The notes under the pieces are model-generated. The model searched no databases. It worked only from the letters and a program-made list of their open reading frames with translations, and was not told where the DNA came from. A stretch of 20,000 bases of DNA from IMG/VR virus record IMGVR_UViG_3300030118_003994, one strand, 5' to 3'. Source of the DNA: an uncultured virus (IMG/VR IMGVR_UViG_3300030118_003994). Its lineage: Duplodnaviria > Heunggongvirae > Uroviricota > Caudoviricetes > Crassvirales. Shown one piece after another: positions 4,701 through 20,000 of this stretch. The translations under genes were made by a program, and so were the position numbers. Every line of letters starts with the position of its first letter. Position 1 is the stretch's first letter.

Positions 4701-7121
4701 TTTTCCAGAGCTAGCCATATTTAAATTAACATAAGGATTTCCACAACAATTTTCATAAGTTATGTCATCCAGATTTGTTATATCTAATATATCCCATAAT
4801 TCACTATAATCTTCAGCACAACCAGTTCCCTGCCCTAACATAAATAATGTTAAAAGTTCTATTGCTCTTTTATATTTTTCCTCAAACTTTTTAATTTTTA
4901 CAATATCTCTTTTACATATAGCATCATCATATCTATTTTTTAATTTTTTAATATGTTGATTTATTCCACAAGGGTCTATAAGACAAACAACATTAGTAAA
5001 GTCTGTTCCTGTCATTGTTTTTATAACACAAGCAGAAGTATAAAGAACAGTGTGTGAAGGAGTTGCTGGAATTTCCCAAACTATTTCTGTAGTAATCATG
5101 TTTCTCCATTCACCTTCATATAGGTCATGAGAAATAAACTGTGCCCCTGTTGAGCCAGCAGGTGAAGGTAATCCACTAGAAGCTGGTGGAAATATTTCGT
5201 GTGTTCTGGTAAACGTATAAGGTATACCAGATATATTATAATCTGTATTATCATTACTTTCTAACTCCCCTTCACAATCATAAGTTAGAGAAGCATCTAT
5301 TTCTAAATTTCCAAATAAATCTATATCTGAAGCATTTAAAAACATTGTTTTTGTATAATCAACACCACTACCACCTGTAAAGTTCCAATCCATTATAATT
5401 TCATAAATATCATCTATATATGTATTGGAAGAAGATTTAGGTATAGGAATAGAAGAATTCATACCTAATTTATTATTTTCATCATAAGTTCTATTAGAAG
5501 CTAAAGCGTCATCATTAAATATATCTGGCGAAACTAAAGAGCCAGGATAAGAAATAGAACCATTAGAATGTTTTATAGTTATAGCTACTGTAGAAGTATT
5601 GTAAGAGCTACCCGCAACCACATAATCGTTTTCATCAACAAATTCAAAAGTTTCTTCGTCTAAATTTAAACAAACCTTTAAACCATCAGGAGAAGGATAA
5701 ACTGGAGCATTTGCCACAGTGACAGTTACTGTTTCTATACATCCAGCAAACTTTCCAAGACCCTGAACTGTACAAGTGTAGGTTCCTGCAGAAAGACCAG
5801 ATATAGCCGCCCCTGTCATACCATTACTCCATGTATATATCATATTGGACAATCCAGTTGCTACCACTGTAGCTGTACCGTCATTAGCACCAACTGCAGT
5901 TTCTCCAGTAGATGTTCCTGTGGCTGATATAGAAGCAAATTGAATAGATGCTTGTGGAAATGTATATTGATACATTGGTGAGTTAAACACACAAGAAGTA
6001 CCAACTCCAGCATTAATTGTAACAGTAACATCTTCCTCAACTGTTGTTAAATAAGAAACAATGCCTGAAAAAGTGCTTAAATTTTCATTAGTTGATTGTA
6101 AAACATTACCAGAAGAATCTGTCCAAACAACATCTATATTTGTAAACAAACTTGAGCCTGGAGCAGAAGCCGTAACATTAACACTAAGGTCAGCACTTCC
6201 ACAAAAATTATCTACAGGGTTTGGAGATGCAGATATATTACAAGCGTTACTTGTTGCTGGCTGAATAGTAAATGTTCCGCTATTACCACAACCAAAACTA
6301 TTAATGTCTGCAGGACAATTACCAGTTCCATGAACCCAAGATAATACCCAAGAATAGGTACCGGGAGCTAAATTTTGTATGGTAATATTATCATAAGGAG
6401 CAGTTCCTGTAGGACTATAAGTTGTTGTTCCTCCTAGAGGGTTATTAAAAATTAAAATTGGTTCACAAGCAGGCTGATTGTTTCCAGAGTTTGGAAATGA
6501 TATAATTACCTGTCCATCTGCATTTCCAGAGTTAGTAGTATAATTCCAAGTTTCATTACTGTAAGTAGCCAAACCATTGTAATTTGTATTACAAGGACTT
6601 CCTGCTCCAGGAAAACAACTAGCACAGTCCGTGAATAAATGCAAGCTACTTCCTTGGTTTTGTAAAACAAAAAGATTTCCAGGAGATTGTAAAGAAAGAT
6701 TTGTAGTTGTTTCTGAATCAAGAAGACGACCATAAGCTATGTTTTGTCCAGTAATATAACCACCATGACCAAGAGGTGAGTTTTGATATATGTCACTTGG
6801 AGACACTATTGTTCCTGCCCCACCCGCAAAAGCTGTGTAAGTTACTTTTTGAAAAAATTCAATACACCATTTATCACCATTAGGTGCTTCTACTCTACAT
6901 TTTTGTCCTTGTTGTGCTGTTGAAGCAATAGATTGATTTAAGCTAAAATCATAAAGAGCACCATCAACAGGACTATAAGAGTCATTGTTAATCCAAAACA
7001 AGCCTCCTTCGTCTGTTTCTGGCGTGCATTGATTGTCTGAATATCTTCTGGCAATCCAAGCACACTCTGTTCCCTGACTGTCTACAAAAGCTATTTCATT
7101 CCACTGTAAAGTATGAGACAT
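1755..7121 (-). CDS. Large Cys-rich mosaic adhesin / fibre-like virion protein (SprB-like repeats, shared module, Gly linker, CBM5/12-like, GCTD..DDGSC repeats, probable beta-propeller, LRR)
   Basis: 1788-aa ORF two genes downstream of the capsid gene. Motifs: DGTATV..YTWSNG..ISGLSAGTYTCTV; 3x GCTDxxAxNYxxxAxxDDGSC; FDGSSW/WDGNNLTW/YNGSAW; LTTLDLSQNVALSNL. No obvious signal peptide. Confidence 0.8.
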   Translation of the reverse strand: MSHTLQWNEIAFVDSQGTECAWIARRYSDNQCTPETDEGGLFWINNDSYSPVDGALYDFSLNQSIASTAQQGQKCRVEAPNGDKWCIEFFQKVTYTAFAGGAGTIVSPSDIYQNSPLGHGGYITGQNIAYGRLLDSETTTNLSLQSPGNLFVLQNQGSSLHLFTDCASCFPGAGSPCNTNYNGLATYSNETWNYTTNSGNADGQVIISFPNSGNNQPACEPILIFNNPLGGTTTYSPTGTAPYDNITIQNLAPGTYSWVLSWVHGTGNCPADINSFGCGNSGTFTIQPATSNACNISASPNPVDNFCGSADLSVNVTASAPGSSLFTNIDVVWTDSSGNVLQSTNENLSTFSGIVSYLTTVEEDVTVTINAGVGTSCVFNSPMYQYTFPQASIQFASISATGTSTGETAVGANDGTATVVATGLSNMIYTWSNGMTGAAISGLSAGTYTCTVQGLGKFAGCIETVTVTVANAPVYPSPDGLKVCLNLDEETFEFVDENDYVVAGSSYNTSTVAITIKHSNGSISYPGSLVSPDIFNDDALASNRTYDENNKLGMNSSIPIPKSSSNTYIDDIYEIIMDWNFTGGSGVDYTKTMFLNASDIDLFGNLEIDASLTYDCEGELESNDNTDYNISGIPYTFTRTHEIFPPASSGLPSPAGSTGAQFISHDLYEGEWRNMITTEIVWEIPATPSHTVLYTSACVIKTMTGTDFTNVVCLIDPCGINQHIKKLKNRYDDAICKRDIVKIKKFEEKYKRAIELLTLFMLGQGTGCAEDYSELWDILDITNLDDITYENCCGNPYVNLNMASSGKPKFDPIKCDDTSGGGITNTGGGGPGGSGGGGTGGGGGTGGGGGSLCPCDDPSVLEWDDNTHNNGGYAVGDYVTFQASGNNQTYDLCFQLNTIPAWNAFDVNQIPLYDMGQVWTYIPCSGGPTLSWGCTDPTATNYDPNAVFDDGSCIAVVYGCTDPTAVNYFAGAQVDDGSCQYLPAPCNALASWDYVGNRGDVHQGESQESGSMAIDSTGNVYAVFYDVGLIHSTNQDAAFLRKFDGSSWSNLREIPFGTRDQLGTPVGGPTGNLQSIEIICDTSEDIIYIHFQQTNQLNNDVTGVDSNGQNYTWSSGTQYIVQVTLRYNITTNSFMDISKLDTGNFPSISGTNYINTNTTDGTPYPASYFRIGHLKLDAKDSSFNNYRRNLYLLGDVFKKTNNTCSFCLEGERSNQGQYMWSPDTALWTKIKNVDVNGDEFNAIYGAKCDVDKNNLLWALIQLNSGGNYLLHKYDKVNEYWELIETTGGVQDDTDGHLIASKQASDLKIYRIKKPYANQNDMKIKASVWDGNNLTWNYIHNSLSVNVLHSSNSGQAFVNNYTYTTDKESNLIIAYSKHPYSTDGIRVEKYNGSAWFIIGEDINLTGTAHQLGRMFYDNNNLYIGYHSDAVPPTGAPGFEIQVYASCSGCTDSNADNYNATATIDDGSCTYGGGGYTPCAPCNNCNCTGTTAITDPELELILENELAINSGVSGTTGDASIDNDYKCLIQILNGTSNFFSTGVYGAVSNLDNIKELSCLAWLNFKGENITGAVDLSGMSKLVNVDLSWNSITSVDLTGCSSLGSFIMIGGLTTSIGNNPNSCGNTAAQCAAGDMYAGCICSGSCRDHRTLTSFTPTDSPALYAVDIIGQPLTTLDLSQNVALSNLMIGPLQGISSLDLSHMNVLANINISVEGVSSFTLNLSPNLDLTLLAGFMVKIYNSGSNSLTISVGSGDVPGTSGGSGAGGLKTRVEYMQDNLPYTICSTTVTVII
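2721..2783 (-). repeat. GCTD..DDGSC protein repeat, copy 3
   Basis: Encodes GCTDSNADNYNATATIDDGSC. Confidence 0.85.
4185..4325 (-). repeat. GCTD..DDGSC protein repeats, copies 1 and 2 (tandem, 26-aa period)
   Basis: GCTDPTATNYDPNAVFDDGSC (4325-4263) and GCTDPTAVNYFAGAQVDDGSC (4247-4185). Confidence 0.85.
4573..4620 (-). repeat. 18-nt tandem repeat encoding a (TGGGGG)n glycine linker
   Basis: cctccacctcctccggtt / cctccaccccctccggtt / cctccaccacca on the + strand. Confidence 0.8.
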
Positions 7122-8119: not shown

Positions 8120-9499
8120 TTAAGCTCTTTCTAATAAGATGAATCTATTTGAAGCAAAACCTTCAAAACCTCTTTCAGTTCTATAGTGAACCTCCATGTT
8201 ATCAGTCTCATTAGTTGGATTTGCAAGACCTGCAGAACCTGTTAACCAGTGCTCCATTTTTCTTGAGTATCCACCCGCTTCTTTATATCTAATTCTTAAA
8301 GAAGGAGTAGCGTCTCCAGTTCTAGCATCCTTTCTCATATCTCCTGGTATTACCATACCCATTCCTGGATAGTTGAAACCAGCAGCACCAAACATTGGTA
8401 AGTAGTTAAATACATCATAAGTTTTCTTATGGAATGTGTAACCACCTCTAGTGAAAGATTTAAATCCGAATGCTACAGCGATTTCTTCAGCACCATTAAA
8501 TGCACCGTAAGAAACACCACCTCCAGCAAACATTGCAGCTATTGCATCGTCAATTGCTAATGATAAGTCAATACCACACCACATAGTATTTTCTTTTGCA
8601 CCTCTATTTTGGTCTAGAGTTCTAATCATTGAATCAAAATCAGATAAATTAAATCCTGCTAATTGGTTGTAAGTTTGAGTGTTACCTGTTCTCATGAACT
8701 CAATAAGTCCTTCAGAACCTGTAATACCACCTTGACCAATAGTACCTGGTAAAGCAGCGTTTGTGTTTGTTGCGATTTTACCCTGAAGCATCATAGTCTC
8801 ACAGTAGTTTACAAAACGTCTGTAAGTGTCAGCCTCACCTTTTAAGTACCAAAGGTATCCTGATTGACCTGTATTTGGGTCAGTAACCTGGAACCAAGTT
8901 TTATTAGTAGCTTCAGAACCAGAAACTTCAAATGATTCTTTCATAATCATTGTGTAGTTAAAGTAATGATTTACCTCAGGAGTAATACCTTCTGGTTGAG
9001 CAGTGCTTTCAGCCCATTCATTACCAATAACAATTAAAGTTTCACCAGCTGCTAATGTAAATGCAGTGTTGTATGCAACCATAGTAATTTGGTCAGAAGC
9101 ATAGTTAACCGCAGTAACTAAAGCAAGGTCTCCACTTTTAGCCATAACAATATCACCTACTCTTGGAAAGTAATTTCCTCCAGCAGAACCTGTTGATGAA
9201 AAAGAAGTATCTAAACTTACGTTAGTACCAGCTAATGCAATTGTTGGTGTACCAGTATTTTTAAAACTTTGATGAATATAATCATCCTCATAGTGCTCAA
9301 ATTTACGTTGAGCAGTAGGAGCCATTGCCCCCATTGAATCTAGAAATCCTGTAAGAGATTGGTCTCCATAACGAGAGATAAAATCTTCAGCGACTTCTGG
9401 TGCATGTACGTTTAACGAAGAAACGTAATTTTCGGTAGTAGCAACCTGGAAAGCACTAGGAATTCCGTTTGCGTACCCCGCTCCACTTGAATATGCCAT
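8120..9499 (-). CDS. Major capsid protein
   Basis: 459 aa; position terL-portal-scaffold-this gene; strong terminator behind it; motifs (IMKESFEVSGS, GSEGL, GFKSFTRGGYTFHK, HYRTERG) resemble Bacteroidota-phage HK97-fold MCPs. Confidence 0.85.
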   Translation of the reverse strand: MAYSSGAGYANGIPSAFQVATTENYVSSLNVHAPEVAEDFISRYGDQSLTGFLDSMGAMAPTAQRKFEHYEDDYIHQSFKNTGTPTIALAGTNVSLDTSFSSTGSAGGNYFPRVGDIVMAKSGDLALVTAVNYASDQITMVAYNTAFTLAAGETLIVIGNEWAESTAQPEGITPEVNHYFNYTMIMKESFEVSGSEATNKTWFQVTDPNTGQSGYLWYLKGEADTYRRFVNYCETMMLQGKIATNTNAALPGTIGQGGITGSEGLIEFMRTGNTQTYNQLAGFNLSDFDSMIRTLDQNRGAKENTMWCGIDLSLAIDDAIAAMFAGGGVSYGAFNGAEEIAVAFGFKSFTRGGYTFHKKTYDVFNYLPMFGAAGFNYPGMGMVIPGDMRKDARTGDATPSLRIRYKEAGGYSRKMEHWLTGSAGLANPTNETDNMEVHYRTERGFEGFASNRFILLERA

Positions 9500-10706: not shown

Positions 10707-12992
10707 TTATTTTATTTTTGTTCTAACCAAGTCAGAATCATCTTGAGATAAAGATATATGCTCGCTTTTTATATTACCCTGATATTCTAACTCTAATAAT
10801 TTTCTTTTATGCTCTGCTTGAGCAAAGTTTTCTTTCATTTCAAACTCTGCTTTCATTTTTTCAATTTCAGCCTGAATATCCATTTGTTTAGCTTGAGCCT
10901 CTACTTGTGCTTTTGCTTGTATAGACATTTGTTGTTGTTGAGCATTAGCTTGAGAGTTGGCTAAAGCCATTTCTTTTAATTCTTTTTGATATTGTTTTCT
11001 TCTTAAAACTAACATTTGATTAGCAAGCTTTATATTTTTAATATTTCTAATCATTATAGAATCTTCAATTCTTAATTCTTTTTGCTGAATAGAAGCTTGT
11101 ATATTTTGTTCTAAAAGAGCTTTTTCTTCTTCATCCGGCAAAGGCTCAATCATAATACCAAAATCTGCTAAAGTAACATCTTTTGTAACTTCTATTGCCT
11201 TCATGTTATATTCTCCAATAGCTTGAACATAACCTTTATACGGCCCAGAGTAAGAAACTAAATCTTGAACTCTTAAAGCAACGCTTTTAGCTAGTTTTTT
11301 TGTAATGCTTAAAAAAGCTTGATTTAACCATCTTGTCGCATTGTTAGAAGCTAATAAAGCCATTTTTTGAACACCAACTAAAGATTCTTTATTAGGCTGC
11401 GAAGCATCTCTTACTTCATTTATACCGGTTACATCTCTTATCATTTGTAAATTGTATTGGTATATAGCTATTAACTCTTGCAAAGCTCCTCCTATACCTC
11501 CTCTTAATTCTGTAATCGGATTCGGGTTTCCAGCTCTACCGTCATCCATTTGTAGCCTGTAGTAAAGATTACCAGTTTGTTGGTAAATATCTTGAACTTC
11601 AATAGGAGTAAAAGTACCACCATCTCCTTTTCCTACATTTTCAATAGCTCCTAACTCTATAGCAGAACCTTGGGGTTTTACTTTGGAAATTAAGTGTTGT
11701 ATTTTTAAATGTGCTAATTGTATTTGGTCTGCAAAAGGTATCATTCTTTCTACCATACCTTTATTATTCATATTAATTATATTAGGAGCGTAAACAGCGT
11801 AAGGCATTAATGCTTTTGAAAGATTACTTTTAGGTCTTACTATATTTTCTGCTATACCATAGTCAAATATAAAATCGGTTCCACATATCCATTTTCCTTT
11901 ATAAATCATTTCTACATGAGATTTCATTTGTTCTCTTTTGTATCTAGGACTTTTAGGAGGCTTGTAGTTTGAGTCTTTTTTGTTTACAGAAAAACCACCA
12001 TATCTATTATTCTTTTTTTCATAGTTCATTGAGTCTGTGCACTTAAAAACACCATCAAGTAATGCTAACTTGTATGTATCGTATTCACTTACTTCATACC
12101 CATTATAATTAATAGAACTTAAAGATAATTTTGCAGGATTTCCGTGCTTACCTAAAACTGATAAAGCTATTTTTTCATACTCTTCTTCGGTAAACTGGTC
12201 TCCTGCCATTCTTTTTAAATCATGAATAGTAACATATATTATTTCTCCAGCATACTCCATGTTTTTAAAGTCTGGGTCGGAAGAATGAGAACAAACAAAG
12301 TTTTTAGGGTCTACATATCTAACTGTTATTTTACCATTTTCAACACCTGTTTTTGCAACACCTATATTTAAAACAACTAAATCACGAATAATTCTTTTTT
12401 TAATTTCTTCAAAATCATTTAAATACATGGTAAGTTCTATGCCCTGTTCCATTGCTATTTCTACAGATTGTTTGTAGTTAAGCTCCATATACAAATCTAA
12501 TTCTTCCTTGTTTTCTGGTAAATTATCAAAACCTTCATCTAAAGGCAATCCTGTTAAAGCTGCTGCCTCATATGCAAAGTCTTTCATTCTCATCTTTGTT
12601 AAAGCATCAAACTTATCTTGATTTTTCTTATCTACAGAGGTAGGGTCTATAGCAGTACACTTTATAGTATAATCTTGATTTGTAAGACCTCCAACTATAA
12701 CGTCTACAAATTTTGGTATAATAGGCACTACTTCCCAGTTTAAATTAAGATAAGAGCTGTCTCCGTTTGCTCCTACTAGTTCTTTATATTGGTCAACAGA
12801 CTGCATGCCTTCTGCATACTCTCTATATCTTTTATACCTTTGATTTCTCGTTGACATAAGGTTTACTCCGGCACCATCATTTTCCCATTCTCTATACATT
12901 TGTTTCATGTACTGAAGCCCATATGCTTTTTCCATTTTTTCCTCCCTAGTTGCTAGTGGATTTGGAAATCCATAAAAATCTTTATATTTCAT
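10707..12992 (-). CDS. Portal protein
   Basis: 761 aa; TAATG-coupled to terL; SYLNLNWEVVPIIPKFVDVIV motif; long Q/A/E-rich C-terminal coiled coil reminiscent of P22-type portals. Confidence 0.85.
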   Translation of the reverse strand: MKYKDFYGFPNPLATREEKMEKAYGLQYMKQMYREWENDGAGVNLMSTRNQRYKRYREYAEGMQSVDQYKELVGANGDSSYLNLNWEVVPIIPKFVDVIVGGLTNQDYTIKCTAIDPTSVDKKNQDKFDALTKMRMKDFAYEAAALTGLPLDEGFDNLPENKEELDLYMELNYKQSVEIAMEQGIELTMYLNDFEEIKKRIIRDLVVLNIGVAKTGVENGKITVRYVDPKNFVCSHSSDPDFKNMEYAGEIIYVTIHDLKRMAGDQFTEEEYEKIALSVLGKHGNPAKLSLSSINYNGYEVSEYDTYKLALLDGVFKCTDSMNYEKKNNRYGGFSVNKKDSNYKPPKSPRYKREQMKSHVEMIYKGKWICGTDFIFDYGIAENIVRPKSNLSKALMPYAVYAPNIINMNNKGMVERMIPFADQIQLAHLKIQHLISKVKPQGSAIELGAIENVGKGDGGTFTPIEVQDIYQQTGNLYYRLQMDDGRAGNPNPITELRGGIGGALQELIAIYQYNLQMIRDVTGINEVRDASQPNKESLVGVQKMALLASNNATRWLNQAFLSITKKLAKSVALRVQDLVSYSGPYKGYVQAIGEYNMKAIEVTKDVTLADFGIMIEPLPDEEEKALLEQNIQASIQQKELRIEDSIMIRNIKNIKLANQMLVLRRKQYQKELKEMALANSQANAQQQQMSIQAKAQVEAQAKQMDIQAEIEKMKAEFEMKENFAQAEHKRKLLELEYQGNIKSEHISLSQDDSDLVRTKIK

Positions 12993-15025
12993 TATTTTAT
13001 TAATTTAGATATTTTACCACTGTTGCTATACCTTCTAACAAAAGGGCTTGTTGTTTTAATTTCTATTTTTGGTTTTATATGTTTTTGAGATGCAAGCAAT
13101 GTAAATCCAGCAGCCATTGTTGCGTCAAATTTAGTTCTATTATTTATATCAAACTCTAACCAGTCTTTTAGTAGTCTTACAAAAAATACTCTTCCTATAT
13201 CTCCTGTTTCTTCATTTACACCTACATAGTCATATATGTAAGCTTGTATAGAATCTACTATAGCATTTGCAACAGCTGTCCCAGTAGCAGGTATACCTAC
13301 TTCTTTTTGTTTTTTAGAAAACTTAGTATGTGTTGATTCTGGTCTTGCCATTAAATATTTTTCGTATCCTCTTCTTTTAAAATATTGTATTAATCCTATT
13401 TTATTATTCTCTACAAGTATTGGGCATCCATAATAAACACACTGCATAAGCATATGTTCAAAAAACATTTCTGCTTTTGGAGGCCTGTGTATATATTCGC
13501 AAACAAACATATGAGAATTATCTTGGTCGTGAACATCTAGTTTTTTAAAAACATATGATGCTGCATCAGACCTTCTTCCATCTGTTGTTGTATCGTGGTC
13601 AAAAGGGTCACATCCAGAAACTAAACTTAATTCATTACCAGGATATTTTCCTGATAATTTTACTTCCATTTTATTACTATCTTCTTTTTTTGGAAGCCAA
13701 GCTGTATTCCAATTTCCTTTTTTATCTGGCATCCATATTACCTCTGTATCTTTATCCCCGTTTTTCCATAAAAAATTACCCCTTGTAGTCATAACATTTC
13801 CAGTTCCTTCTATATAATCTATTTGTTGATATATTCTTTCTGAATCAAACAAACAATCGTCTGTACTAACCCTAAACGCTTCTTCTGGAGTAAAAGGAAA
13901 TTGTCTTTTATATTCCGCAAGTTTATTTGTATCATTTTTATAGCTTTGCCGTATGCCTTCTAAATACTGTTTACTTCCTATTTCAATTTTTTCTCCATAC
14001 TTGTCGTAAATAGTTTTTTTAGGATTTTCTATAACACTATTTCCGTATTCATCTATAAACCCTTCAAACCCATCATAAGCTGGAGTAAAGTATCTAAACA
14101 AACCAGATTTTGTTCTATTAATACCAGGAACTATATTTTCTTGGTCTGAATCATCCCATATATCCTTAAAAGCTTTACCTCCTGATTCCATTTCATTTAC
14201 TGTTGATGGTAAAAATGCTTTACCTATAATTCTTATACCTTCAGATAATGCAGGTTTTACTATTTGCCAGTTTTTTGAAACATCAGCTTCTAACCATTTA
14301 CCACCCTCATCAGATATAAAAGTTTTTAATTTTTCTCCATCATAAGAGTTATCTCTAGTATTACGCCAGTCTATTTGACTATCTAAAGCTTCTGACTTTT
14401 TTACTTTAGCATTATTTTTAGTAATTTTTTCTCCAGGTTTTTTAAAAGACAAAACCGTTTTTGGAGAGTCTGTACCTTCAATAATAGGCTGAAAAAAGTC
14501 TGGTAACTTTCTAAACATAAACACAACCTTGTCAAAGAGCTTTTTTGCGTCAGAACCCGTTTTACTCATAATTCCACCATTAGAATTATAGGATAAAGTT
14601 ATATCGTGCATAACAATTGCTGCTGCTTTCCAAGAAGCTCCTTGTCTTCTATGTTTTGGCATAATTAAACCGTAACAATTAGGGTTGTTTCTAACGCCAT
14701 CCCATATCAAAAAAAACCTCCTATCTCTATCCCAGTAATCTGGATAACCAACATCTATTTTACACCAATTTAAATAGTAGTAGTGAACTCCTGTTATGTA
14801 GGTTGCCACACCATTATTCATAAACCAAACACCTTCAACTCTTCTTTTAAACTCTTGCTCTATAAACTTTGCTCTTTTAGATTCTGGTAAAATTTCCCAG
14901 TTTTCTGGAAGCTTAGTTCTTTCCCACTTTTGTTTCTTTTTTGGTTTGTTAGAACCTAAAATAAAACGCTTAGAAGGTTTTTTTGGAATACTAATTGGTA
15001 TACCATAAATTTCTTTACTTGACAT
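12992..15025 (-). CDS. terL: Terminase large subunit
   Basis: Walker A-like KHRRQGAS, Walker B FISDEGG, coupling motif ST, nuclease acidic motifs GCDP..SD, VENN, KFDATMA. Confidence 0.92.
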   Translation of the reverse strand: MSSKEIYGIPISIPKKPSKRFILGSNKPKKKQKWERTKLPENWEILPESKRAKFIEQEFKRRVEGVWFMNNGVATYITGVHYYYLNWCKIDVGYPDYWDRDRRFFLIWDGVRNNPNCYGLIMPKHRRQGASWKAAAIVMHDITLSYNSNGGIMSKTGSDAKKLFDKVVFMFRKLPDFFQPIIEGTDSPKTVLSFKKPGEKITKNNAKVKKSEALDSQIDWRNTRDNSYDGEKLKTFISDEGGKWLEADVSKNWQIVKPALSEGIRIIGKAFLPSTVNEMESGGKAFKDIWDDSDQENIVPGINRTKSGLFRYFTPAYDGFEGFIDEYGNSVIENPKKTIYDKYGEKIEIGSKQYLEGIRQSYKNDTNKLAEYKRQFPFTPEEAFRVSTDDCLFDSERIYQQIDYIEGTGNVMTTRGNFLWKNGDKDTEVIWMPDKKGNWNTAWLPKKEDSNKMEVKLSGKYPGNELSLVSGCDPFDHDTTTDGRRSDAASYVFKKLDVHDQDNSHMFVCEYIHRPPKAEMFFEHMLMQCVYYGCPILVENNKIGLIQYFKRRGYEKYLMARPESTHTKFSKKQKEVGIPATGTAVANAIVDSIQAYIYDYVGVNEETGDIGRVFFVRLLKDWLEFDINNRTKFDATMAAGFTLLASQKHIKPKIEIKTTSPFVRRYSNSGKISKLIK

Positions 15026-15029
15026 AAGA

Positions 15030-15060
15030 CAAATATACGAATAAATTTGGATATATACAA
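15030..15060 (-). promoter_or_regulatory. Bacteroidota-type promoter for terL-portal
   Basis: TTG (15060-15058), 20-nt spacer, TATATTTG (15037-15030); only 4 nt before the terL ATG. Confidence 0.7.
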
Positions 15061-15077
15061 TAGTTTAACTATATTTG
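15046..15077 (+). promoter_or_regulatory. Bacteroidota-type promoter for the + strand two-gene cassette
   Basis: TTTG (15046-15049), 20-nt spacer, TATATTTG (15070-15077): canonical -33/-7 arrangement. Confidence 0.8.
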
Positions 15078-15117
15078 CATTTACAATCAATCTATTTATT
15101 AACAAAAAATTAAAAAA

Positions 15118-16107
15118 ATGGCAAATTTTATTTCAGTACCTGTAAAAAAGTTTGGAAACGAGGATTTTAGTAATCCTGGTGACGGAACTACTGGGTACAA
15201 CACAATGGGTATAGATGTAAATAAAATCATCTATGCTTTTGACACAGAAACTAATTTAGGAAAAGCAGTTTCAGCTCAAACAGATTCTGGAGACACTATT
15301 ACTATTACTGGTCATGGGTTACAAGTAAACGATGCTATATATTTTGATGCAGAATGTGAAGCTACAACTGTTCTTGCAAACAGAGTATATTTCGTTAAAA
15401 CTGTTCCAACAGCTGATACTATTACTGTTTCAGATACTTTAGGGGGAAGCGTGCAAAATATTGCTGCTGACGGAACTTCTGATACTCCTAATGTTTTTAA
15501 AATTGAAGGTCAAATTATTTATGCTGACACAACTAACAATGGAAGACCTGTTGATGTTATTGTAAACAGAGGTCTTATCAGACAAAATCATGCAGGGGAT
15601 ACGGTTCAAGCATTATCTCAAAACTTATTAATTGTAGACTGCAATGAAAAAAATGGAATAGCTTATTCTGGAACTGATAGCAACATGATTATAAACACTC
15701 ACAGAGTTATGTTGTCTTATGATGGCGGTAGTGATGACTGGAAAACTTTTTATGATGCTTCTAACACAAACATGGCAGGATTAGATTCTCCTTTCGTTGA
15801 TGTTTTAGAGTTAGAAACTTCTTTAAATTCTGCAGGAACTCTAGCTAAATTTATTAATCACATTGGTGCATTAGGAGGTCCTGAAAATTTTGAAAGTTTA
15901 ACAGTAAATGGTAGAACTGTTAGTTTTCCAGATGTATCGGCTTCTGGTATAGTAAGACTAACTTGTGTAGCAAGTGCATATGAGTCTGAGTCTAAAACTT
16001 ACTTAAAAATAAAAGGAATGGGTAAAAATAGCTGGGATACTTTAGTTATAAACACTACTCTTTCAAATGTAGTAGGTTCAACAGACGCAACAAATATTGT
16101 AGAATAA
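15118..16107 (+). CDS. Putative virion structural protein with an inserted small beta-barrel (TITITGHGL..D.IYF type) domain
   Basis: 329 aa, beta-rich T/S/G/D composition; AAAAAAATG start; segment DTITITGHGLQVNDAIYF..RVYFVKT..DTITVS resembles E1-FCCH-like domains of phage virion proteins. Confidence 0.7.
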   Translation: MANFISVPVKKFGNEDFSNPGDGTTGYNTMGIDVNKIIYAFDTETNLGKAVSAQTDSGDTITITGHGLQVNDAIYFDAECEATTVLANRVYFVKTVPTADTITVSDTLGGSVQNIAADGTSDTPNVFKIEGQIIYADTTNNGRPVDVIVNRGLIRQNHAGDTVQALSQNLLIVDCNEKNGIAYSGTDSNMIINTHRVMLSYDGGSDDWKTFYDASNTNMAGLDSPFVDVLELETSLNSAGTLAKFINHIGALGGPENFESLTVNGRTVSFPDVSASGIVRLTCVASAYESESKTYLKIKGMGKNSWDTLVINTTLSNVVGSTDATNIVE

Positions 16108-16132
16108 TCATTAACTTTAAAAATTTAAAAAC

Positions 16133-16495
16133 ATGGCAACATTAAAACCAACATTAACATTAACAAATGCAGATTCTACTGCTGATGCTTTAAATATTTC
16201 AGTTACTGATACCTTAACAGTCTCAGAGCCTGCTGTAAATATAGCTAGAGCTTCAATAGCAACTTCTGCTGCAACTAATATTTTAACTACAGCCAACTCA
16301 GCTATTACTTATGTTTATTTAAAAAATATAGACACTACAAATATCATTACAGTAAAAAATGATAATGGTGATAATTTTTTAGATTTAGGTCCTGGTGAGT
16401 TTTCTTTCTTTCCTGTAAAGGGAGCGATTGGATTAGAGGTTCAAGCTAACACTGCTGCTTGTGTGTTAGAATACGGATACTGGTCTAAGTCGTAG
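16133..16495 (+). CDS. Small beta-rich putative virion protein
   Basis: 120 aa; YVYLKN..LGPGEFSFFP..LEY pattern typical of small phage structural proteins; followed by a terminator. Confidence 0.7.
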   Translation: MATLKPTLTLTNADSTADALNISVTDTLTVSEPAVNIARASIATSAATNILTTANSAITYVYLKNIDTTNIITVKNDNGDNFLDLGPGEFSFFPVKGAIGLEVQANTAACVLEYGYWSKS

Positions 16496-16507
16496 TATTT
16501 ATGTATT

Positions 16508-16537
16508 AAAAAAGAAAGGGGCGTAAGCCCCTTTTTT
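16508..16537. terminator. Bidirectional intrinsic terminator between convergent genes
   Basis: AAAAAAG-AAAGGGGC-GTAA-GCCCCTTT-TTT; GNRA-type loop; A tract on the left and T tract on the right. Confidence 0.88.
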
Positions 16538-16802
16538 ATTTTTTATACAATTTTTTAGCCTCTACTAAATCTTGGCACTTTTCGTATTCTTCTGTACTTA
16601 TAAAATATTCTATTAAAACATCTATTAATTCTATAGGGTCTGCTTGCTCCATGTTATCAGGATTAAATATAAGACCAAAGTCTTCGTCTTGCTCAAACAA
16701 ACCGTCTATAGTTATTTGTTGAGTTAACACCATGTAAGACCAAAACATAGAGTTGTGTATTATTTCTTCTTGTTTTTGCATTTCAGCTATTTCTTCTATC
16801 AT
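16536..16802 (-). CDS. Small acidic protein with a C-terminal UVR-like helical motif
   Basis: 88 aa; YFISTEEYEKCQDL; ATGA overlap with the upstream gene. Confidence 0.65.
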   Translation of the reverse strand: MIEEIAEMQKQEEIIHNSMFWSYMVLTQQITIDGLFEQDEDFGLIFNPDNMEQADPIELIDVLIEYFISTEEYEKCQDLVEAKKLYKK

Positions 16803-17110
16803 TTTTTTCTTGCGTATCTTTCGGAGAAACCTCCTTTAAAATTATTGTTTTCTATTTCCTCTTCTTGATTCTGGCCTTTTATTTTTTTCTCTAAAGATAC
16901 TAATGCTGCTAGCATTTCTTGAGCATCCATAAAAGCTTTCTTTTTTGATTCTAATGCTGACTTTCTTTTTTCGTCAGCCACATCATCTGCTATTGGTCTT
17001 CTTACATCTGCAATTAAAGTAGATATACCATCTTTAGCTGCACTTAACAAGTCCTGTAATGTTTCCTCAACATATACTTGTACATCGCTTTTTTCTAGTT
17101 TATCTTGCAT
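16799..17110 (-). CDS. Putative terminase small subunit
   Basis: 103 aa, helical, KKKAFMDA..FKGGFSERYARKK; upstream of terL on the same strand. The function is inferred from size, helicity and position. Confidence 0.5.
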   Translation of the reverse strand: MQDKLEKSDVQVYVEETLQDLLSAAKDGISTLIADVRRPIADDVADEKRKSALESKKKAFMDAQEMLAALVSLEKKIKGQNQEEEIENNNFKGGFSERYARKK

Positions 17111-17667
17111 AGTATTTCATTGTTTTTCATTCTAAACAATCTTTCTCCTTCAATAACCATATCGTAGTTTGCATTTTTAATAAAAACTATTTCATCTCCT
17201 ACACCAAAGCCTTCTTGTTTTGAAAACTTATTAGTATGAGCTACTATACCTTTTTTTGTAGACTCTTTTGATTCTACATATATGTTTTTTATTTTATCTT
17301 CTGTTTGTATAGGCTTTACAAAAACATAATCTTGAGTCATTGTTATTTTACCATCTCTAACATAACAATATATTTGGTCGTAGTGAACTTTATATATATT
17401 TTCTCCACCAAACTGACTAGCCATTCTTTCATCTATTACATGATGATGAAAATAAACTTTATCTCCTTCTAGCAAAGTTAAATTATCCTTTACTCTTTTG
17501 TTTATATTTATAGATGACATTTTTACAATTCCGTATTGTCTAGCATTTACATATCTATCATAAGAAGTGTCTAACCATATTTTTTCTCCATTGTCTAAAA
17601 CAACAGTGTTTTCTTCTTCTTTTTCTAACTCTACATATACAAAATCTCCTATTGGTATTATTTTCAT
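17095..17667 (-). CDS. groES: Co-chaperonin GroES-like protein with two tandem Cpn10 domains
   Basis: N half MKIIPIGDFVYVE..GIVK..EGDKVYF; C half DYVFVKP..IYV..KGIVAH..VGDEIVF..IEGERLFRMKNNEILC. Confidence 0.75.
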   Translation of the reverse strand: MKIIPIGDFVYVELEKEEENTVVLDNGEKIWLDTSYDRYVNARQYGIVKMSSININKRVKDNLTLLEGDKVYFHHHVIDERMASQFGGENIYKVHYDQIYCYVRDGKITMTQDYVFVKPIQTEDKIKNIYVESKESTKKGIVAHTNKFSKQEGFGVGDEIVFIKNANYDMVIEGERLFRMKNNEILCKIN

Positions 17668-17930
17668 ATTAATTGTGGTTCTAGTGATAAATCATATTCT
17701 GGCACACACTTGCTGGAGGGTATAGATTTCCACAATCTAACGTAGTTTTTTTTGTTAGGTATGACGTAGATGTTATATCTTCCCTCTCCGAAGTGTTCTG
17801 CATAAGCTGAGTCAAATGTTATGTCTACAACTTTTATTGCTCCATTTGCAATAGTTTGTCCTTTTACATAAGTTATATCTCTGTCTCCAGCTGTTACTAT
17901 TACTTTTCTTATTAATCCTTGTTCAATCAT
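17664..17930 (-). CDS. Conserved phage hypothetical protein
   Basis: 88 aa; ATGA overlap with the groES-like gene; IRKV..Y.KGQ..YNIYV..WK..EYDL. Confidence 0.7.
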   Translation of the reverse strand: MIEQGLIRKVIVTAGDRDITYVKGQTIANGAIKVVDITFDSAYAEHFGEGRYNIYVIPNKKNYVRLWKSIPSSKCVPEYDLSLEPQLI

Positions 17931-17931
17931 T

Positions 17932-18180
17932 TTACCATTTGTTTTTAGGACAAGACTCAGTCTTCATTCTTCCTTTATACTCTACTATACATCCGCAAAC
18001 ACCACAAGTTCCTTTGTCTCTTTTTAACAATTCACAAGAATTACAAATCAACATTCTTTTTTCAAAAATCTCTTCTGATACGTTAGGAAATCCTTCAGAA
18101 GCATATCTTATTAAAGACTTTGTTAAGCTCCAGCCTTTTCTTATTAAATTAGGTTCTTTATTGTTATTGTCCTTATCCAT
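17932..18180 (-). CDS. Small Cys-rich putative metal-binding protein (DUF6171-like)
   Basis: R..IC..C..L...C..CGC....K......CP..KW pattern; first gene after the promoter at 18201-18208. Confidence 0.7.
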   Translation of the reverse strand: MDKDNNNKEPNLIRKGWSLTKSLIRYASEGFPNVSEEIFEKRMLICNSCELLKRDKGTCGVCGCIVEYKGRMKTESCPKNKW

Positions 18181-18200
18181 ATTATTAAATTAAATTGTTT

Positions 18201-18261
18201 CAAATATAGTAATAAAAAACAATATAATACTATGATGTTAATAAATTTTTTATTATATTTG
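18201..18261. promoter_or_regulatory. Divergent pair of Bacteroidota-type -7 elements
   Basis: TATATTTG on minus (18208-18201) and on plus (18254-18261), each preceded by a T tract and pointing into an operon. Confidence 0.75.
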
Positions 18262-18291
18262 TATATTATTAACCAATAAAAAAATAAAATT

Positions 18292-18357
18292 ATGGCTTAC
18301 GGAATGATGAAAAAAGGAAAGAAAAAAAAGAAAATGAAAAAAGGAGGTAGAAGATAA
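18292..18357 (+). CDS. 21-aa highly basic micro-protein
   Basis: MAYGMMKKGKKKKKMKKGGRR; A-rich leader; stop overlaps the next ATG (TAATG). Confidence 0.6.
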   Translation: MAYGMMKKGKKKKKMKKGGRR

Positions 18358-18413
18358 TGGGTTGCGGTTGCGGAAAGAAAAAAACAATTAAAACTAAGCA
18401 GAATGGCAAATAA
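18357..18413 (+). CDS. 18-aa basic micro-protein with CGCG motif
   Basis: MGCGCGKKKTIKTKQNGK; TAATG-coupled. Confidence 0.55.
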   Translation: MGCGCGKKKTIKTKQNGK

Positions 18414-18555
18414 AAGAGTTAAGGCTCCATCTGGTTATCACTGGATGAAAAAGGGCAAATCTGTCAAGCTTATGAAACATAGCGGTAAATTCGTTCCACA
18501 TAAAGGAGCGAGTTTATTTGCTAGTTTTGCGGTACAGAAAAAACACACAAAATAA
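18403..18555 (+). CDS. 50-aa basic His-containing small protein
   Basis: MANKRVKAPSGYHWMKKGKSVKLMKHSGKFVPHKGASLFASFAVQKKHTK; no D/E; TAATG-coupled to the next gene. Confidence 0.7.
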   Translation: MANKRVKAPSGYHWMKKGKSVKLMKHSGKFVPHKGASLFASFAVQKKHTK

Positions 18556-18842
18556 TGGCCAAAGCAGACAAAAGAGCATCAGCTATAAAGCGTGCAGGTG
18601 TTAGTGGTTTAAATAAACCAAAACGTACACCAGGACATCCTACCAAATCACATGTAGTTGTAACTAACTGTAAAGGAAAGATTAAAACTATAAGATTTGG
18701 TCAGCAAGGTGTAAGCACGGCTGGTAAAAAAATGGATTCTAAATCTAAAGCTAGAAGAAAATCATTTAAAGCTAGACATGCTAAGAATATAGCTAAAGGA
18801 CAATGCTCTGCTGCATACTGGGCTAATAAAGTAAAATGGTAA
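18555..18842 (+). CDS. Basic small phage protein (RRKSFKARH..SAAYW family)
   Basis: 95 aa; KPKRTPGHPTKSHVV..IRFGQQG..RRKSFKARH..SAAYWANKVKW, a pattern I recall from aquatic phages. Confidence 0.8.
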   Translation: MAKADKRASAIKRAGVSGLNKPKRTPGHPTKSHVVVTNCKGKIKTIRFGQQGVSTAGKKMDSKSKARRKSFKARHAKNIAKGQCSAAYWANKVKW

Positions 18843-18843
18843 T

Positions 18844-18957
18844 ATGGCAAGAAAACTTTCAAAAAAACAAGGGAGAATAGCAAAGCTTGCTCCTCCATAC
18901 AATAAAATTACTGGAGCAGATTTTAAAGTTCTTAGAAGACGTAAAAAAAGAAGATAG
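18844..18957 (+). CDS. 37-aa basic micro-protein
   Basis: MARKLSKKQGRIAKLAPPYNKITGADFKVLRRRKKRR; TAG overlaps the next GTG start. Confidence 0.7.
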   Translation: MARKLSKKQGRIAKLAPPYNKITGADFKVLRRRKKRR

Positions 18958-19241
18958 TGGCTAGAGACTACAAAGAGGAGTATAGAAAGTTTCAATCTTC
19001 TACCAAGGCAAAAAAAGATAGGGCTGCAAGAAACGCTGCTAATAGAAAAAAGAAATGCCCACCTGGTTCTGAAGTACATCATAAAGATGGTAACCCAAGA
19101 AACAATAGTGCATCTAATTTAGTATGTAGAAAAAAAAGTGCTAACAGAGGAGGTAAAAACGAAGGTGGAAGAAGAAAAGGAGTATCTCATAATTATCCAA
19201 AAGGAAGAAAGTCTCCTGGAACAGGAACTAAAAGAGTATAG
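18957..19241 (+). CDS. Small HNH endonuclease-like protein
   Basis: EVHHKDGNPRNNSASNL..SANR beta-beta-alpha-metal motif; basic tail; GTG start. Confidence 0.8.
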   Translation: MARDYKEEYRKFQSSTKAKKDRAARNAANRKKKCPPGSEVHHKDGNPRNNSASNLVCRKKSANRGGKNEGGRRKGVSHNYPKGRKSPGTGTKRV

Positions 19242-19243
19242 AT

Positions 19244-19387
19244 ATGGCAAAAAAGAAAAAAGGAAATAAAATATGTGCAGCAGGTAAAGCTTGGGCTATG
19301 CGAACATATGGTAAATGGTCTGCTTATGCTGCAATGGGTGCCTCTAAGTATTGTAAAGACCCTAATTACGCTAAAAACAAAAAATAA
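19244..19387 (+). CDS. 47-aa basic small protein
   Basis: MAKKKKGNKICAAGKAWAMRTYGKWSAYAAMGASKYCKDPNYAKNKK; TAATG-coupled to the next gene. Confidence 0.7.
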   Translation: MAKKKKGNKICAAGKAWAMRTYGKWSAYAAMGASKYCKDPNYAKNKK

Positions 19388-19626
19388 TGGGAGCATTAAA
19401 AAAATGGTTAAAACAAAAATGGGTTCGTATAGGCACTGATGGTTCTATAAAAGGTCCTTGCGGAACAAGTAAAGCTAAAAAAAACCCAGATAGATGTTTG
19501 CCTTTAGCAAAAGCTAGAAGTTTAAGTAAGTCAGAAAGAGCAAAGACAGCTAGAAAAAAGAAAGCAAGCGGTGGAAAAAAACAATTTGTAAGTAACACTA
19601 AAAAAGCAAGAGTAAGAAACGCATAA
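19387..19626 (+). CDS. Basic small phage protein (DUF5872-like)
   Basis: 79 aa; LKKWLKQKWV..PCG..RCLP..A..LSKSER..TARKK..KQFV. Confidence 0.75.
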   Translation: MGALKKWLKQKWVRIGTDGSIKGPCGTSKAKKNPDRCLPLAKARSLSKSERAKTARKKKASGGKKQFVSNTKKARVRNA

Positions 19627-19637
19627 AAAAAAATAAA

Positions 19638-19913
19638 ATGAGCAATAGAAAACAACCAGAAGAATTTACAAAAAATGTAAAACAAGGAAAAAACGGAAGT
19701 GAAAATTTAAGTATGTTAAACACTCCCAATGTTAATCTTGTTAAAAAACAAGTTGGGCCTGTAGCAGAAGTAAAAGAAACACCAGTAAAAGAACAAAACA
19801 TACAAGCTCGAATGCACAATGTAATGGAGATAAAAGACCGGGAAACTAGTACTTCGAAAAGAAGATTTAAGCCACTGAAGTCGCAAAGACCGGAGCCTAG
19901 AGACGAAAGATAA
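19638..19913 (+). CDS. Hypothetical hydrophilic, probably disordered protein
   Basis: 91-aa ORF with A-rich leader, continuing the operon. Confidence 0.65.
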   Translation: MSNRKQPEEFTKNVKQGKNGSENLSMLNTPNVNLVKKQVGPVAEVKETPVKEQNIQARMHNVMEIKDRETSTSKRRFKPLKSQRPEPRDER

Positions 19914-19926
19914 AAAAAGAAAAATA

Positions 19927-20000
19927 ATGAAAATAGGAAGAAAATTAAGAGACATAGGAAATGAAGATTGTGGTTGTGGGCCTGCTGGTCGTCACACTGA
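19927..20000 (+). CDS. Partial small protein with CGCG motif
   Basis: MKIGRKLRDIGNEDCGCGPAGRHT..., open to the window end; A-rich leader. Confidence 0.55.
   Translation, partial: MKIGRKLRDIGNEDCGCGPAGRHT

Follow-up and report, generated by a model that had tools for sequence, protein, structure and literature searches.

The cassette described here is a chain of ten short plus-strand open reading frames (ORFs), designated o21, o18, o50, o95, o37, o94, o47, o79, o91 and o24, at the 3' end of a 20,000-nucleotide (nt) stretch of the uncultured virus IMGVR_UViG_3300030118_003994. This whole stretch, referred to as the window, is AT-rich phage DNA (~32% GC) that also encodes terminase, portal and capsid proteins. 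The cassette genes are real and under purifying selection. Judged by sequence comparison, most of them appear to be free-standing copies of modules that elsewhere are fused into head-module proteins.

Organization and conservation of the cassette

An earlier note on this DNA described ten plus-strand ORFs that follow one another almost without gaps, and all ten are found where it placed them (Table 1). The junctions it listed are present as well: TAATG at 18357, 18555 and 19387, TAGTG at 18957, an 11-nt overlap between o18 and o50, and gaps of 1, 2, 11 and 13 nt. Its residue counts are borne out, with Lys and Arg together making up 11 of 21 residues in o21 and 15 of 37 in o37, and with no Asp or Glu in o21, o18 or o50. 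The chain of plus-strand ORFs of at least 18 codons tiles ~100% of 18292-19913, a coverage reached in none of 500 first-order Markov simulations of that stretch (mean 0.44, standard deviation 0.10, maximum 0.73). The first eight products have isoelectric points (pI) of 10.0-12.0 and net charges of +6 to +24. Structural proteins encoded in the same window are mostly acidic, so an A-rich genome alone cannot explain the charge of the cassette.

Ratios of nonsynonymous to synonymous substitution rates (dN/dS, Nei-Gojobori method) were calculated against the relative L086 for the first eight genes and against L083 for o91 and o24. They are 0.34 for o21 (19 codons), 0.07 for o18, 0.07 for o50, 0.09 for o95, 0.08 for o37, 0.13 for o94, 0.18 for o47 and 0.07 for o79, and 0.47 and 0.16 for o91 and o24. 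The values are below 1 for the ORFs of fewer than 60 amino acids (aa) too, namely o21, o18, o50, o37 and o47.

Gene content varies among the close relatives. L086 keeps eight ORFs in synteny, in the order o21-o18-o50-o95-o37-o94-(64-aa extra gene)-o47-o79, and L083 reads o37-o94-(46 aa)-(85 aa)-o91-o24. L001 carries a 23-aa Lys-rich ORF, a 20-aa MGCGC ORF, o50, o95 and o94. The cassette of L085 consists of the MGCGC ORF and the HNH gene alone; L088 has o95 in addition, and in L089 the extra genes are a 25-aa Lys-rich ORF and one for an 87-aa basic protein. Some relatives also end at the 3' side with proteins of 68-75 aa and 41-51 aa. Every relative that covers the region has the MGCGC micro-ORF and the HNH gene, and no other gene is universal.

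The MGCGC micro-ORF, represented by o18 in the window, is present in seven of the seven relatives that cover its position (L001, L084, L085, L086, L087, L088, L089) and encodes 20-46 aa. In three of them the peptide is Cys-rich, with six Cys in 21-31 aa (L084:4936-5001, L085:4936-5001, L088:4904-4999). The HNH protein contains just two Cys, and one speculation is that it forms a common metal site with the MGCGC peptide. CGCG-like Cys motifs also occur in the o24 fragment and in the divergent DUF6171 protein. Upstream of the MGCGC ORF, o21-like peptides of 19-25 aa and similar composition hold the same position in L086, L001 and L084 with TAATG-type coupling kept; o21 matches no Pfam or PHROG family. 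At the other end of the cassette, o91 has a homologue in one relative alone (L083, 83% identity), matches no Pfam or PHROG family, and is replaced by a different sequence in contigs of two DNA runs (joint at 19710 to 19913). The full-length o24 protein of L083 has 75 aa and is 92% identical over the 24 residues available, and o24 relatives of 68-69 aa are encoded in L001 and L084.

The HNH protein that the earlier note reported in the cassette is o94, which matches PF13392 (HNH_3) over residues 34-63 (37.5 bits against a cut-off of 24.8; expectation value (E) 1.9e-9). This type of HNH protein is present in eight of eight close relatives examined (L001, L083-L089), with the HNH core (HH...N...N) conserved. 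Sixty o94-related loci were collected, and 24 neighbours of the distant relatives among them (L090-L142) were scanned. Ten of these neighbours are TerL, mostly 3-268 bp downstream of the HNH gene (~1.1 kb in L104); the remainder comprise one TerS, one portal, one major head protein, one head-assembly protein, two families of unknown function and eight proteins without a match. In 20 further loci, outside the 24 scanned neighbours, an ORF of the same size class lies at the same spacing from the HNH gene. Within the cassette, the HNH protein is better read as a terminase-associated nuclease than as a member of the binder set that the earlier note inferred.

The earlier note also placed a single promoter box ahead of the cassette, and TATATTTG is indeed found at that position. 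The box occurs 11 times in the window against 2.5 copies expected (4-fold), a number reached in none of 200 shuffles, and seven of the 11 copies sit 4-40 nt 5' of gene starts in the orientation of the gene. Its shape is that of the Bacteroidota -7 box, TAnnTTTG. It is likely to be a promoter box of that type, and it hints at a Bacteroidota host, in agreement with the affinities of the window terminase, whose closest counterparts are those of Flavobacterium, Cellulophaga and Maribacter podophages (37-42% identity). Since TATATTTG precedes both terL and the cassette, the cassette cannot be assigned to a separate early class. A scan of the window for sigma-70-type promoters and terminators performed no better than on shuffled sequences.

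A conserved terminator-like hairpin with a T run comes after the cassette in L085, L089 and L088, and next to it lies more than 1 kb of AT-rich non-coding DNA, which measures ~0.5 kb in L001. The stretch, 0.5-1.3 kb long across these relatives, contains TATA-rich repeats and conserved blocks, precedes a conserved gene of ~150 aa, and could be a replication origin or a genome end. Rfam gave no match in 17500-20000 or in four relatives, and no tRNA was detected in the window or in seven relatives.

DNA runs from nine marine or estuarine metagenome studies contain the cassette stretch. Three DNA runs show a 3- to 20-fold rise in read depth at 18675-18941, and loose ends are numerous at 18746-18842; contigs of other phages align in that region owing to the strong DNA conservation of the 3' third of o95. 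In the RNA run X20, no long piece lies on 12000-18140 among the matches listed, from which no inference is drawn, and the depth spike at 19743-20000 stems from A-rich matches.

Beyond the cassette, the GroES-like gene of the operon from which the earlier note described the cassette as divergent is recognized by a family match, and the divergence holds. The terminase, portal, capsid, GroES-like and DUF6171 genes are all encoded on the minus strand. Downstream of the capsid block lies a 1788-aa protein (1755-7121, minus strand) that is very acidic (net charge -106), contains 54 Cys and has no Pfam or PHROG match; it is probably a large tail or fibre protein.

Table 1. Positions of the cassette ORFs, promoter boxes and other features in the window, with the downstream stretch of the relatives
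Feature	Position	Strand	Description
o21	18292-18357	+	21-aa Lys/Gly-rich leader peptide, net +11
o18	18357-18413	+	18-aa micro-protein, invariant N-terminal MGCGC motif
o50	18403-18555	+	50-aa basic module, net +13
o95	18555-18842	+	95-aa basic protein, phrog_7595, weakly Tlr6F/DUF5754-like, net +24
o37	18844-18957	+	37-aa basic module, net +14
o94	18957-19241	+	minimal HNH endonuclease with basic tails; GTG start; PF13392, phrog_4590
o47	19244-19387	+	47-aa basic two-Cys module, phrog_27331
o79	19387-19626	+	79-aa basic module, phrog_23735, DUF5872-like
o91	19638-19913	+	91-aa lineage-specific protein, mildly basic (+8)
o24	19927-20000	+	start of ~75-aa protein, open at window end; fragment net +2
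Divergent promoter region	18199-18267		two TATATTTG boxes, one on each strand
TATATTTG box	18254-18261	+	gene start 18292; 30 nt before o21
TATATTTG box	18201-18208	-	gene start 18180; 20 nt before DUF6171 gene
TATATTTG box	15070-15077		gene start 15118
TATATTTG box	15030-15037		gene start 15025
TATATTTG box	10676-10683		gene start 10650
TATATTTG box	7148-7155		gene start 7121
TATATTTG box	848-855		gene start 827
DUF6171 gene	17932-18180		family match; divergent from cassette
GroES-like gene	17095-17667		family match; divergent from cassette
Large terminase (terL)	12992-15025	-	phrog_6681, E 8.7e-149
Portal	10707-12992	-	phrog_6547
crAss/SU10-like capsid protein	8120-9499	-	family match (Pfam/PHROG)
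Non-coding stretch downstream of cassette	L085:5283-6640, L089:5635-6880, L088:5586-6870, L001:7046-7540

Module families, fusions and genomic neighbours

Three of the basic modules have significant full-length matches to PHROG families: o95 to phrog_7595 (E 5.5e-35), o47 to phrog_27331 (E 5.4e-13) and o79 to phrog_23735 (E 3.2e-25). All three families are annotated as being of unknown function. The o95 family is large: clustering at 90% identity gives at least 8000 clusters, and 1135 representatives are left at 50%. It is found in 43 phage records at E<=0.001, including roseophages (SIO1, cobaviruses and CRP phages), HMO-2011, cyanosiphoviruses and a Vibrio phage, and its cultured carriers infect Roseobacter, SAR116, Synechococcus, Prochlorococcus and Vibrio. 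Pfam and PHROG scans place o50 and o37 in no named family.

Two families of unknown function resemble these modules. DUF5754 (PF19058) aligns its C-terminal 31 of 49 profile positions to o95 at 19.0 bits, below the gathering cut-off of 27.4 (E 0.0015). The profile matches at E<=0.01 in five of the 58 members of an o95 alignment (A1), and an o95 cluster of 91% identity (P0005) bears a precomputed PF19058 label, so a distant kinship is possible. DUF5872 (PF19197) gives no match to o79 at E<=1. The L083 protein at the o79 position scores 54.1 bits against the DUF5872 cut-off of 27.5 (E 2.9e-14) and matches o79 at 40% identity (E 4e-7), and o47 and o79 together appear to resemble DUF5872. ESM Atlas searches with o79 and o50 returned unnamed clusters only, in one of which 15% of the members carry DUF5872.

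The module families are linked in other aquatic phages, where their co-occurrence is conserved. With profiles built here, a census of 157 o95-bearing IMG/VR loci shows an o79-like gene beside o95 in 61, on the same strand in all 61 and at a median gap of 262 bp. In 14 of the loci o95 is accompanied by o50 (median gap 117 bp) and in seven by o37 (median gap 16 bp), without exception on the o95 strand. Homologues of o37 amount to nine IMG/VR loci and gp29 of pelagiphage HTVC106P, and those of o50 are found in four phage records, pelagiphages among them. The cassette of HTVC106P unites five of the families. Its coupled genes gp30-gp24 follow an M15A endolysin and encode, in order, o95-like, o37, o50, acidic, o47, o79 and Cys-rich proteins; gp28 and gp25 were identified by tblastn, and gp29, gp26 and gp30 by visual inspection of their translations. 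The o47 gene lies immediately 5' of o79 in the window, L086, HTVC106P (gp26 then gp25) and phage C75C1. In C75C1 the homologues of o47 and o79 are 77% and 80% identical, adjoin tiny Lys-rich ORFs and precede head-closure and fibre genes.

Annotation of these genes is uneven. The o47 homologue of C75C1 (L228, OQ984151.1 34644-34832; tblastn 34658-34786) is out of frame with the annotated CDS0044, and the o95 homologue of SIO1 (L225, NC_002519.1 24065-24277) is entirely unannotated. Literature searches returned no paper that gives these cassettes a function, with nothing on them in the retrieved portions of PMC4819975 and PMC6775973.

The modules also occur fused to one another. P0220 (197 aa) combines o95, o50 and an o47-like module, P0216 and P0237 join o79 to o95, P0128 joins phrog_14910 to o95, and L217 encodes an o79-like part fused to o50. 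The modules recur in shuffled order, bead-like along a string. The module joints in P0220, P0128 and PSSM2_123 (L229:3090-3905) consist of a Lys-rich linker followed by an aromatic residue or Met, two residues and Gly-Gly; o21 resembles such a linker and ends in Met-Lys-Lys-Gly-Gly-Arg-Arg (Met-x-x-Gly-Gly at residues 15-19). An o47-like module is present in P0220 and in the cyanomyovirus proteins PSSM2_123 and SSCSM1_29, and tblastn with P0220 matches its o47-like part to 221 phage records, of which most are T4-like cyanophages. In P-SSM2, PSSM2_123 (T4-GC119) is encoded between gp15 and terS. Its counterpart in S-SCSM1, ORF29 (517 aa), is annotated as 'virion protein' and is matched by o79 at E 6.5e-7. 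The name 'T4-GC119' was not found in literature searches.

Larger o95 proteins extend to giant ORFs. Among the best 150 of the 1135 o95 representatives, 51 have at most 140 aa, 38 have 141-300, 21 have 301-700 and 40 exceed 700. A Pfam scan of 30 long o95 proteins detected ART-PolyVal in five (two above the cut-off), PcfJ and DUF6973 in one each (both above the cut-off), and three sub-threshold matches (methyltransferase, GNAT, dockerin), leaving 20 without a match. In P0266, o95 shares one chain with a lytic-transglycosylase region, for which the PHROG match is 'internal virion protein with endolysin domain' (phrog_342, E 3.6e-23). At the DNA level, seven of 78 loci hold uninterrupted ORFs of 851-1731 aa that bear the o95 module, and in three of three contigs examined an o95-bearing ORF of 1466-1731 aa lies directly between TerL and portal. 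An unrelated contig with a giant o95 fusion also has a GroES-like gene after the portal gene (L150:15411-15833); such genes may regularly accompany head modules of this kind.

The survey of stand-alone o95 genes covered 46 loci flanked by 3.5 kb or more on each side and took the nearest ORF of at least 150 aa per side (92 proteins). A head, packaging, connector or tail neighbour is present in 24 of the 46, with terL in 10 and portal in eight, and the order terminase-o95-portal occurs in three. The others comprise four loci with lysis neighbours only, three with other functions only and 15 with no annotated neighbour; none has replication neighbours only. In SIO1 and CRP-5 the o95 gene ends the arm of lysis and internal-virion-protein genes, and in HMO-2011, MW202701 and S-CBS2 it lies 5' of structural genes.

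The AlphaFold2 (AF2) model of o95 is a confident small alpha/beta structure (predicted local distance difference test (pLDDT) 82.9, predicted template modelling score (pTM) 0.69), and that of o79 is moderate (pLDDT 73.1). For the o95 model, Foldseek found nothing in the PDB at E<=0.001 (best 0.3, to SH2 and YoeB/ParE), and a wide VIA-align search found no match to a solved fold (best Z 2.8). The o79 model likewise matches no solved fold (best Z 2.9). From these scores no fold is assigned to either protein. BFVD contains eight matches at E<=0.001, all uncharacterized; weaker matches to longer proteins, named ChaB (E 2.5e-3) and XkdF (E 4e-3), are kept as leads only. Matches of o95 and o79 to PDB sequences by phmmer are at chance level.

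Proposed role and its rivals

The modules are proposed to be late-made, DNA-binding cargo that is loaded into the head, a reading given about an even chance. One short operon would be transcribed from the same TATATTTG box as the neighbouring structural genes. Its fixed frame would consist of the MGCGC micro-protein, a terminase-type HNH protein and the o24-type protein of 68-75 aa (window, L083, L001, L084), and its variable load would be made up of portable polycationic modules: the Lys-rich leader, o50, o95, o37 and the o47+o79 pair. The modules would be produced alongside head and packaging proteins, bind phage DNA through their charge, enter the capsid alongside it as internal cargo, and exit with it at the next infection. 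As apparent free-standing copies of head-protein building blocks, they probably travel with phage DNA, and they probably act on it at the head or packaging stage and are enclosed with it. What we infer is that the modules are made late in this phage, bind DNA, are encapsidated and are ejected.

Several observations weigh against this proposal. No stand-alone family has been detected in a virion. Mass spectrometry of CsCl-purified S-SCSM1 virions identified 45 proteins, 13 of them of unknown function, according to part of PMC9602691; its supplement carries no mass-spectrometry flags, so the 'virion protein' label of ORF29 rests on GenBank annotation. For the Tlr6F protein of PgVV, bioRxiv 2022.07.28.501842 gives few peptides in purified particles, below the significance threshold. 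The prevailing view, stated in PMC3281028, is that proteins play little part in neutralizing phage DNA, there being no evidence of a large contribution by basic proteins. The Pfam and PHROG matches of the 20-kb window include no head protease, and no capsid-targeting signal turned up in its proteins, where no motif search was made. The window cassette lies outside the structural operon and is divergent from it. The context count for o95 includes near-duplicates (such as L023 and L031) that are not independent, and PHROG annotation is skewed towards structural genes. Two RNA library contigs, one of 498 nt on 18355-18851 (6 differences) and one of 290 nt on 18883-19172 (5 differences), are weak evidence of transcription of the cassette because the library was oligo-dT primed, the cassette is A-rich and DNA carry-over is possible; the contigs carry no timing information.

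Gene content adds to these objections. Profiles of o95 and o79 have no match anywhere in G002, the 63,437-bp record that holds L089 and is 95% complete by CheckV, and the cassette of L085 is reduced to the MGCGC ORF and the HNH gene, so the modules are dispensable. The basic genes are accessory and interchangeable, which speaks against an essential protamine-like condensing system. The earlier note interpreted the locus as a dedicated set of co-expressed nucleic-acid binders. A single dedicated, co-oriented and coupled operon, with purifying selection and co-occurrence of its families, is upheld, but a fixed ten-part system is not, given the lack of o95 and o79 in G002. Among the functions that the note offered, the head and packaging context and the fusions favour packaged or ejected core proteins over ribosome or nucleoid takeover.

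It is rather unlikely, though in keeping with much of the data, that the modules bind nucleic acid in the infected cell without being packaged, helping the terminase and HNH protein to compact or bend replicated DNA or coating host or phage DNA late in infection. Charge, linkage to a terminase-type HNH gene and positions near terS, terL and portal fit this equally well, as do stand-alone forms without virion detection. However, giant TerL-portal ORFs with ART-PolyVal and lytic-transglycosylase parts have the architecture of DNA-co-injected proteins described in sections of PMC5512222, and the fused cyanomyovirus relative is annotated as a virion protein. An improbable alternative makes the modules early effectors against host defence or for takeover, expressed from a host-type promoter upon entry and equivalent to polyvalent domains standing alone. 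The promoter box is host-type in appearance, gene content among close relatives is mosaic and fast-changing as in counter-defence regions, and the operon of the relatives ends at a terminator-like hairpin beside a long non-coding stretch. The occurrence of the same TATATTTG box ahead of terL and other structural genes argues against an early class, as does the absence of loci with only replication- or early-type neighbours among the 46 stand-alone o95 loci, and families common to eukaryotic viruses speak against a host-specific target.

Lysis and translation are the other functions to be considered. The peptides might be cationic, envelope-acting lysis helpers, as in spanin-less phages; gp28 of phiKT, 'disruptin', is reportedly a cationic lysis peptide of such a phage. 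The position of the HTVC106P cassette after the M15A endolysin and of the CRP-5 cassette after membrane proteins, together with the four o95 loci that have lysis neighbours only, points in this direction. The function is nonetheless very improbable: the peptides have no hydrophobic or amphipathic stretches, o21 is almost pure Lys and Gly, o95 and o79 are predicted to be folded domains, and the fusions join head-module proteins, with no lysis protein except the transglycosylase of internal-virion type. Ribosome- or RNA-binding factors that redirect translation in the manner of small ribosomal proteins seem the remotest of the readings. Size and charge are similar and phmmer gives weak matches to uL13 (E 0.2-0.5), but no ribosomal-protein family is found in Pfam at E<=0.01, PDB matches are at chance level, and the genomic context is that of head and packaging genes.

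The proposal of head-loaded cargo can be extended to a broader one, which is offered tentatively and with more doubt than belief: ocean tailed phages would dress their packaged DNA with proteins beyond ions and polyamines, using a shuffled polycationic kit, a cross-realm 'viral chromatin', that enters the capsid and is delivered with the genome. Two modules of the proposed kit (Tlr6F-like and DUF5872-like) have counterparts in giant viruses, polinton-like viruses and virophages. The kit may be encoded as separate mini-genes, as module strings or as tags on giant cargo proteins.

The modules travel together, fuse into head-module proteins and adjoin packaging genes, and the stand-alone genes have head, packaging or lysis genes as neighbours. 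A sizeable portion of viral 'dark matter', whose o95 relatives are core genes of polinton-like viruses, thereby becomes a testable proposal about protein cargo or counter-ions in phage heads. If the proposal is true, the textbook view of protein-free neutralization of phage DNA would need revision, and the annotation of several such genes, at present missing or in the wrong frame in GenBank records, would change.

Comparison with known systems

Polyvalent proteins, whose genes in phages accompany those for portal and terminase, are proposed to enter the head and to be injected along with the DNA (Iyer, Burroughs, Anand, de Souza, Aravind 2017; parts of PMC5512222). The o95 module resembles them in occurring within multi-part proteins of 300-2276 aa, some with ART-PolyVal, PcfJ or ParB-C, and the giant o95 proteins examined sit between terminase and portal. 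In contrast, each window ORF is a single module with its own start and stop, and the multi-domain form is found only in relatives (P0191, P0252, P0266). The window cassette is also divergent from the terL/portal operon, whereas the giant o95 ORFs lie between TerL and portal in the three contigs examined. A term search of PMC5512222 found no mention of cyanophage or Roseobacter.

T4-GC119 carries o79/DUF5872-like, o47-like and DUF6321-like modules in one chain, as judged by eye, and is encoded in the neck/packaging block; the computed matches are that of o79 to ORF29 and the tblastn match of P0220 to the o47-like part. It differs from the cassette in being a single protein of 271-517 aa without an o95, o50 or o37 part.

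Tlr6F is conserved in polinton-like viruses, virophages, giant viruses and some phages and has no known fold or function (parts of PMC4642659 and PMC12220804). It is a core gene of PgVV-like viruses (bioRxiv 2022.07.28.501842, in part), and one giant virus genome lists DUF5754 and DUF5872 together (PMC12085832, in part). Like Tlr6F/DUF5754, o95 is small, basic and without a known fold; unlike it, o95 scores below the threshold and has ~40 extra conserved N-terminal residues. Families common to viruses of such different hosts suggest that o95- and DUF5872-type proteins act on a host-independent target, for which DNA or the virion is a better candidate than any host factor.

Packaging-associated HNH endonucleases were reportedly described by Kala et al. 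2014. Their arrangement, with the HNH gene beside the terminase gene, is given in part of PMC5304195. The HNH_3 domain of o94 and the location of its relatives directly 5' of TerL are in line with terminase-associated enzymes. The window HNH gene differs in not being terminase-adjacent: it lies inside a mini-gene operon, 3.9 kb from terL and on the other strand, and its protein has two Cys.

Chloroviruses have basic DNA-binding virion proteins, and adenoviruses and baculoviruses have core proteins of protamine-like type; all are viruses of eukaryotes, with a lower packing density (PMC3281028, in part). These proteins share with the cassette the form of small, high-pI sets, which in those viruses are thought to neutralize packaged DNA. 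The T4 internal proteins IPI, IPII and IPIII enter the head by way of a capsid-targeting sequence of ~10 residues that is cut by the head protease (PMC7697877, in part). They have no sequence similarity to the window proteins, yet they match the proposed role in being small, present in many copies, and enclosed and delivered with the DNA.

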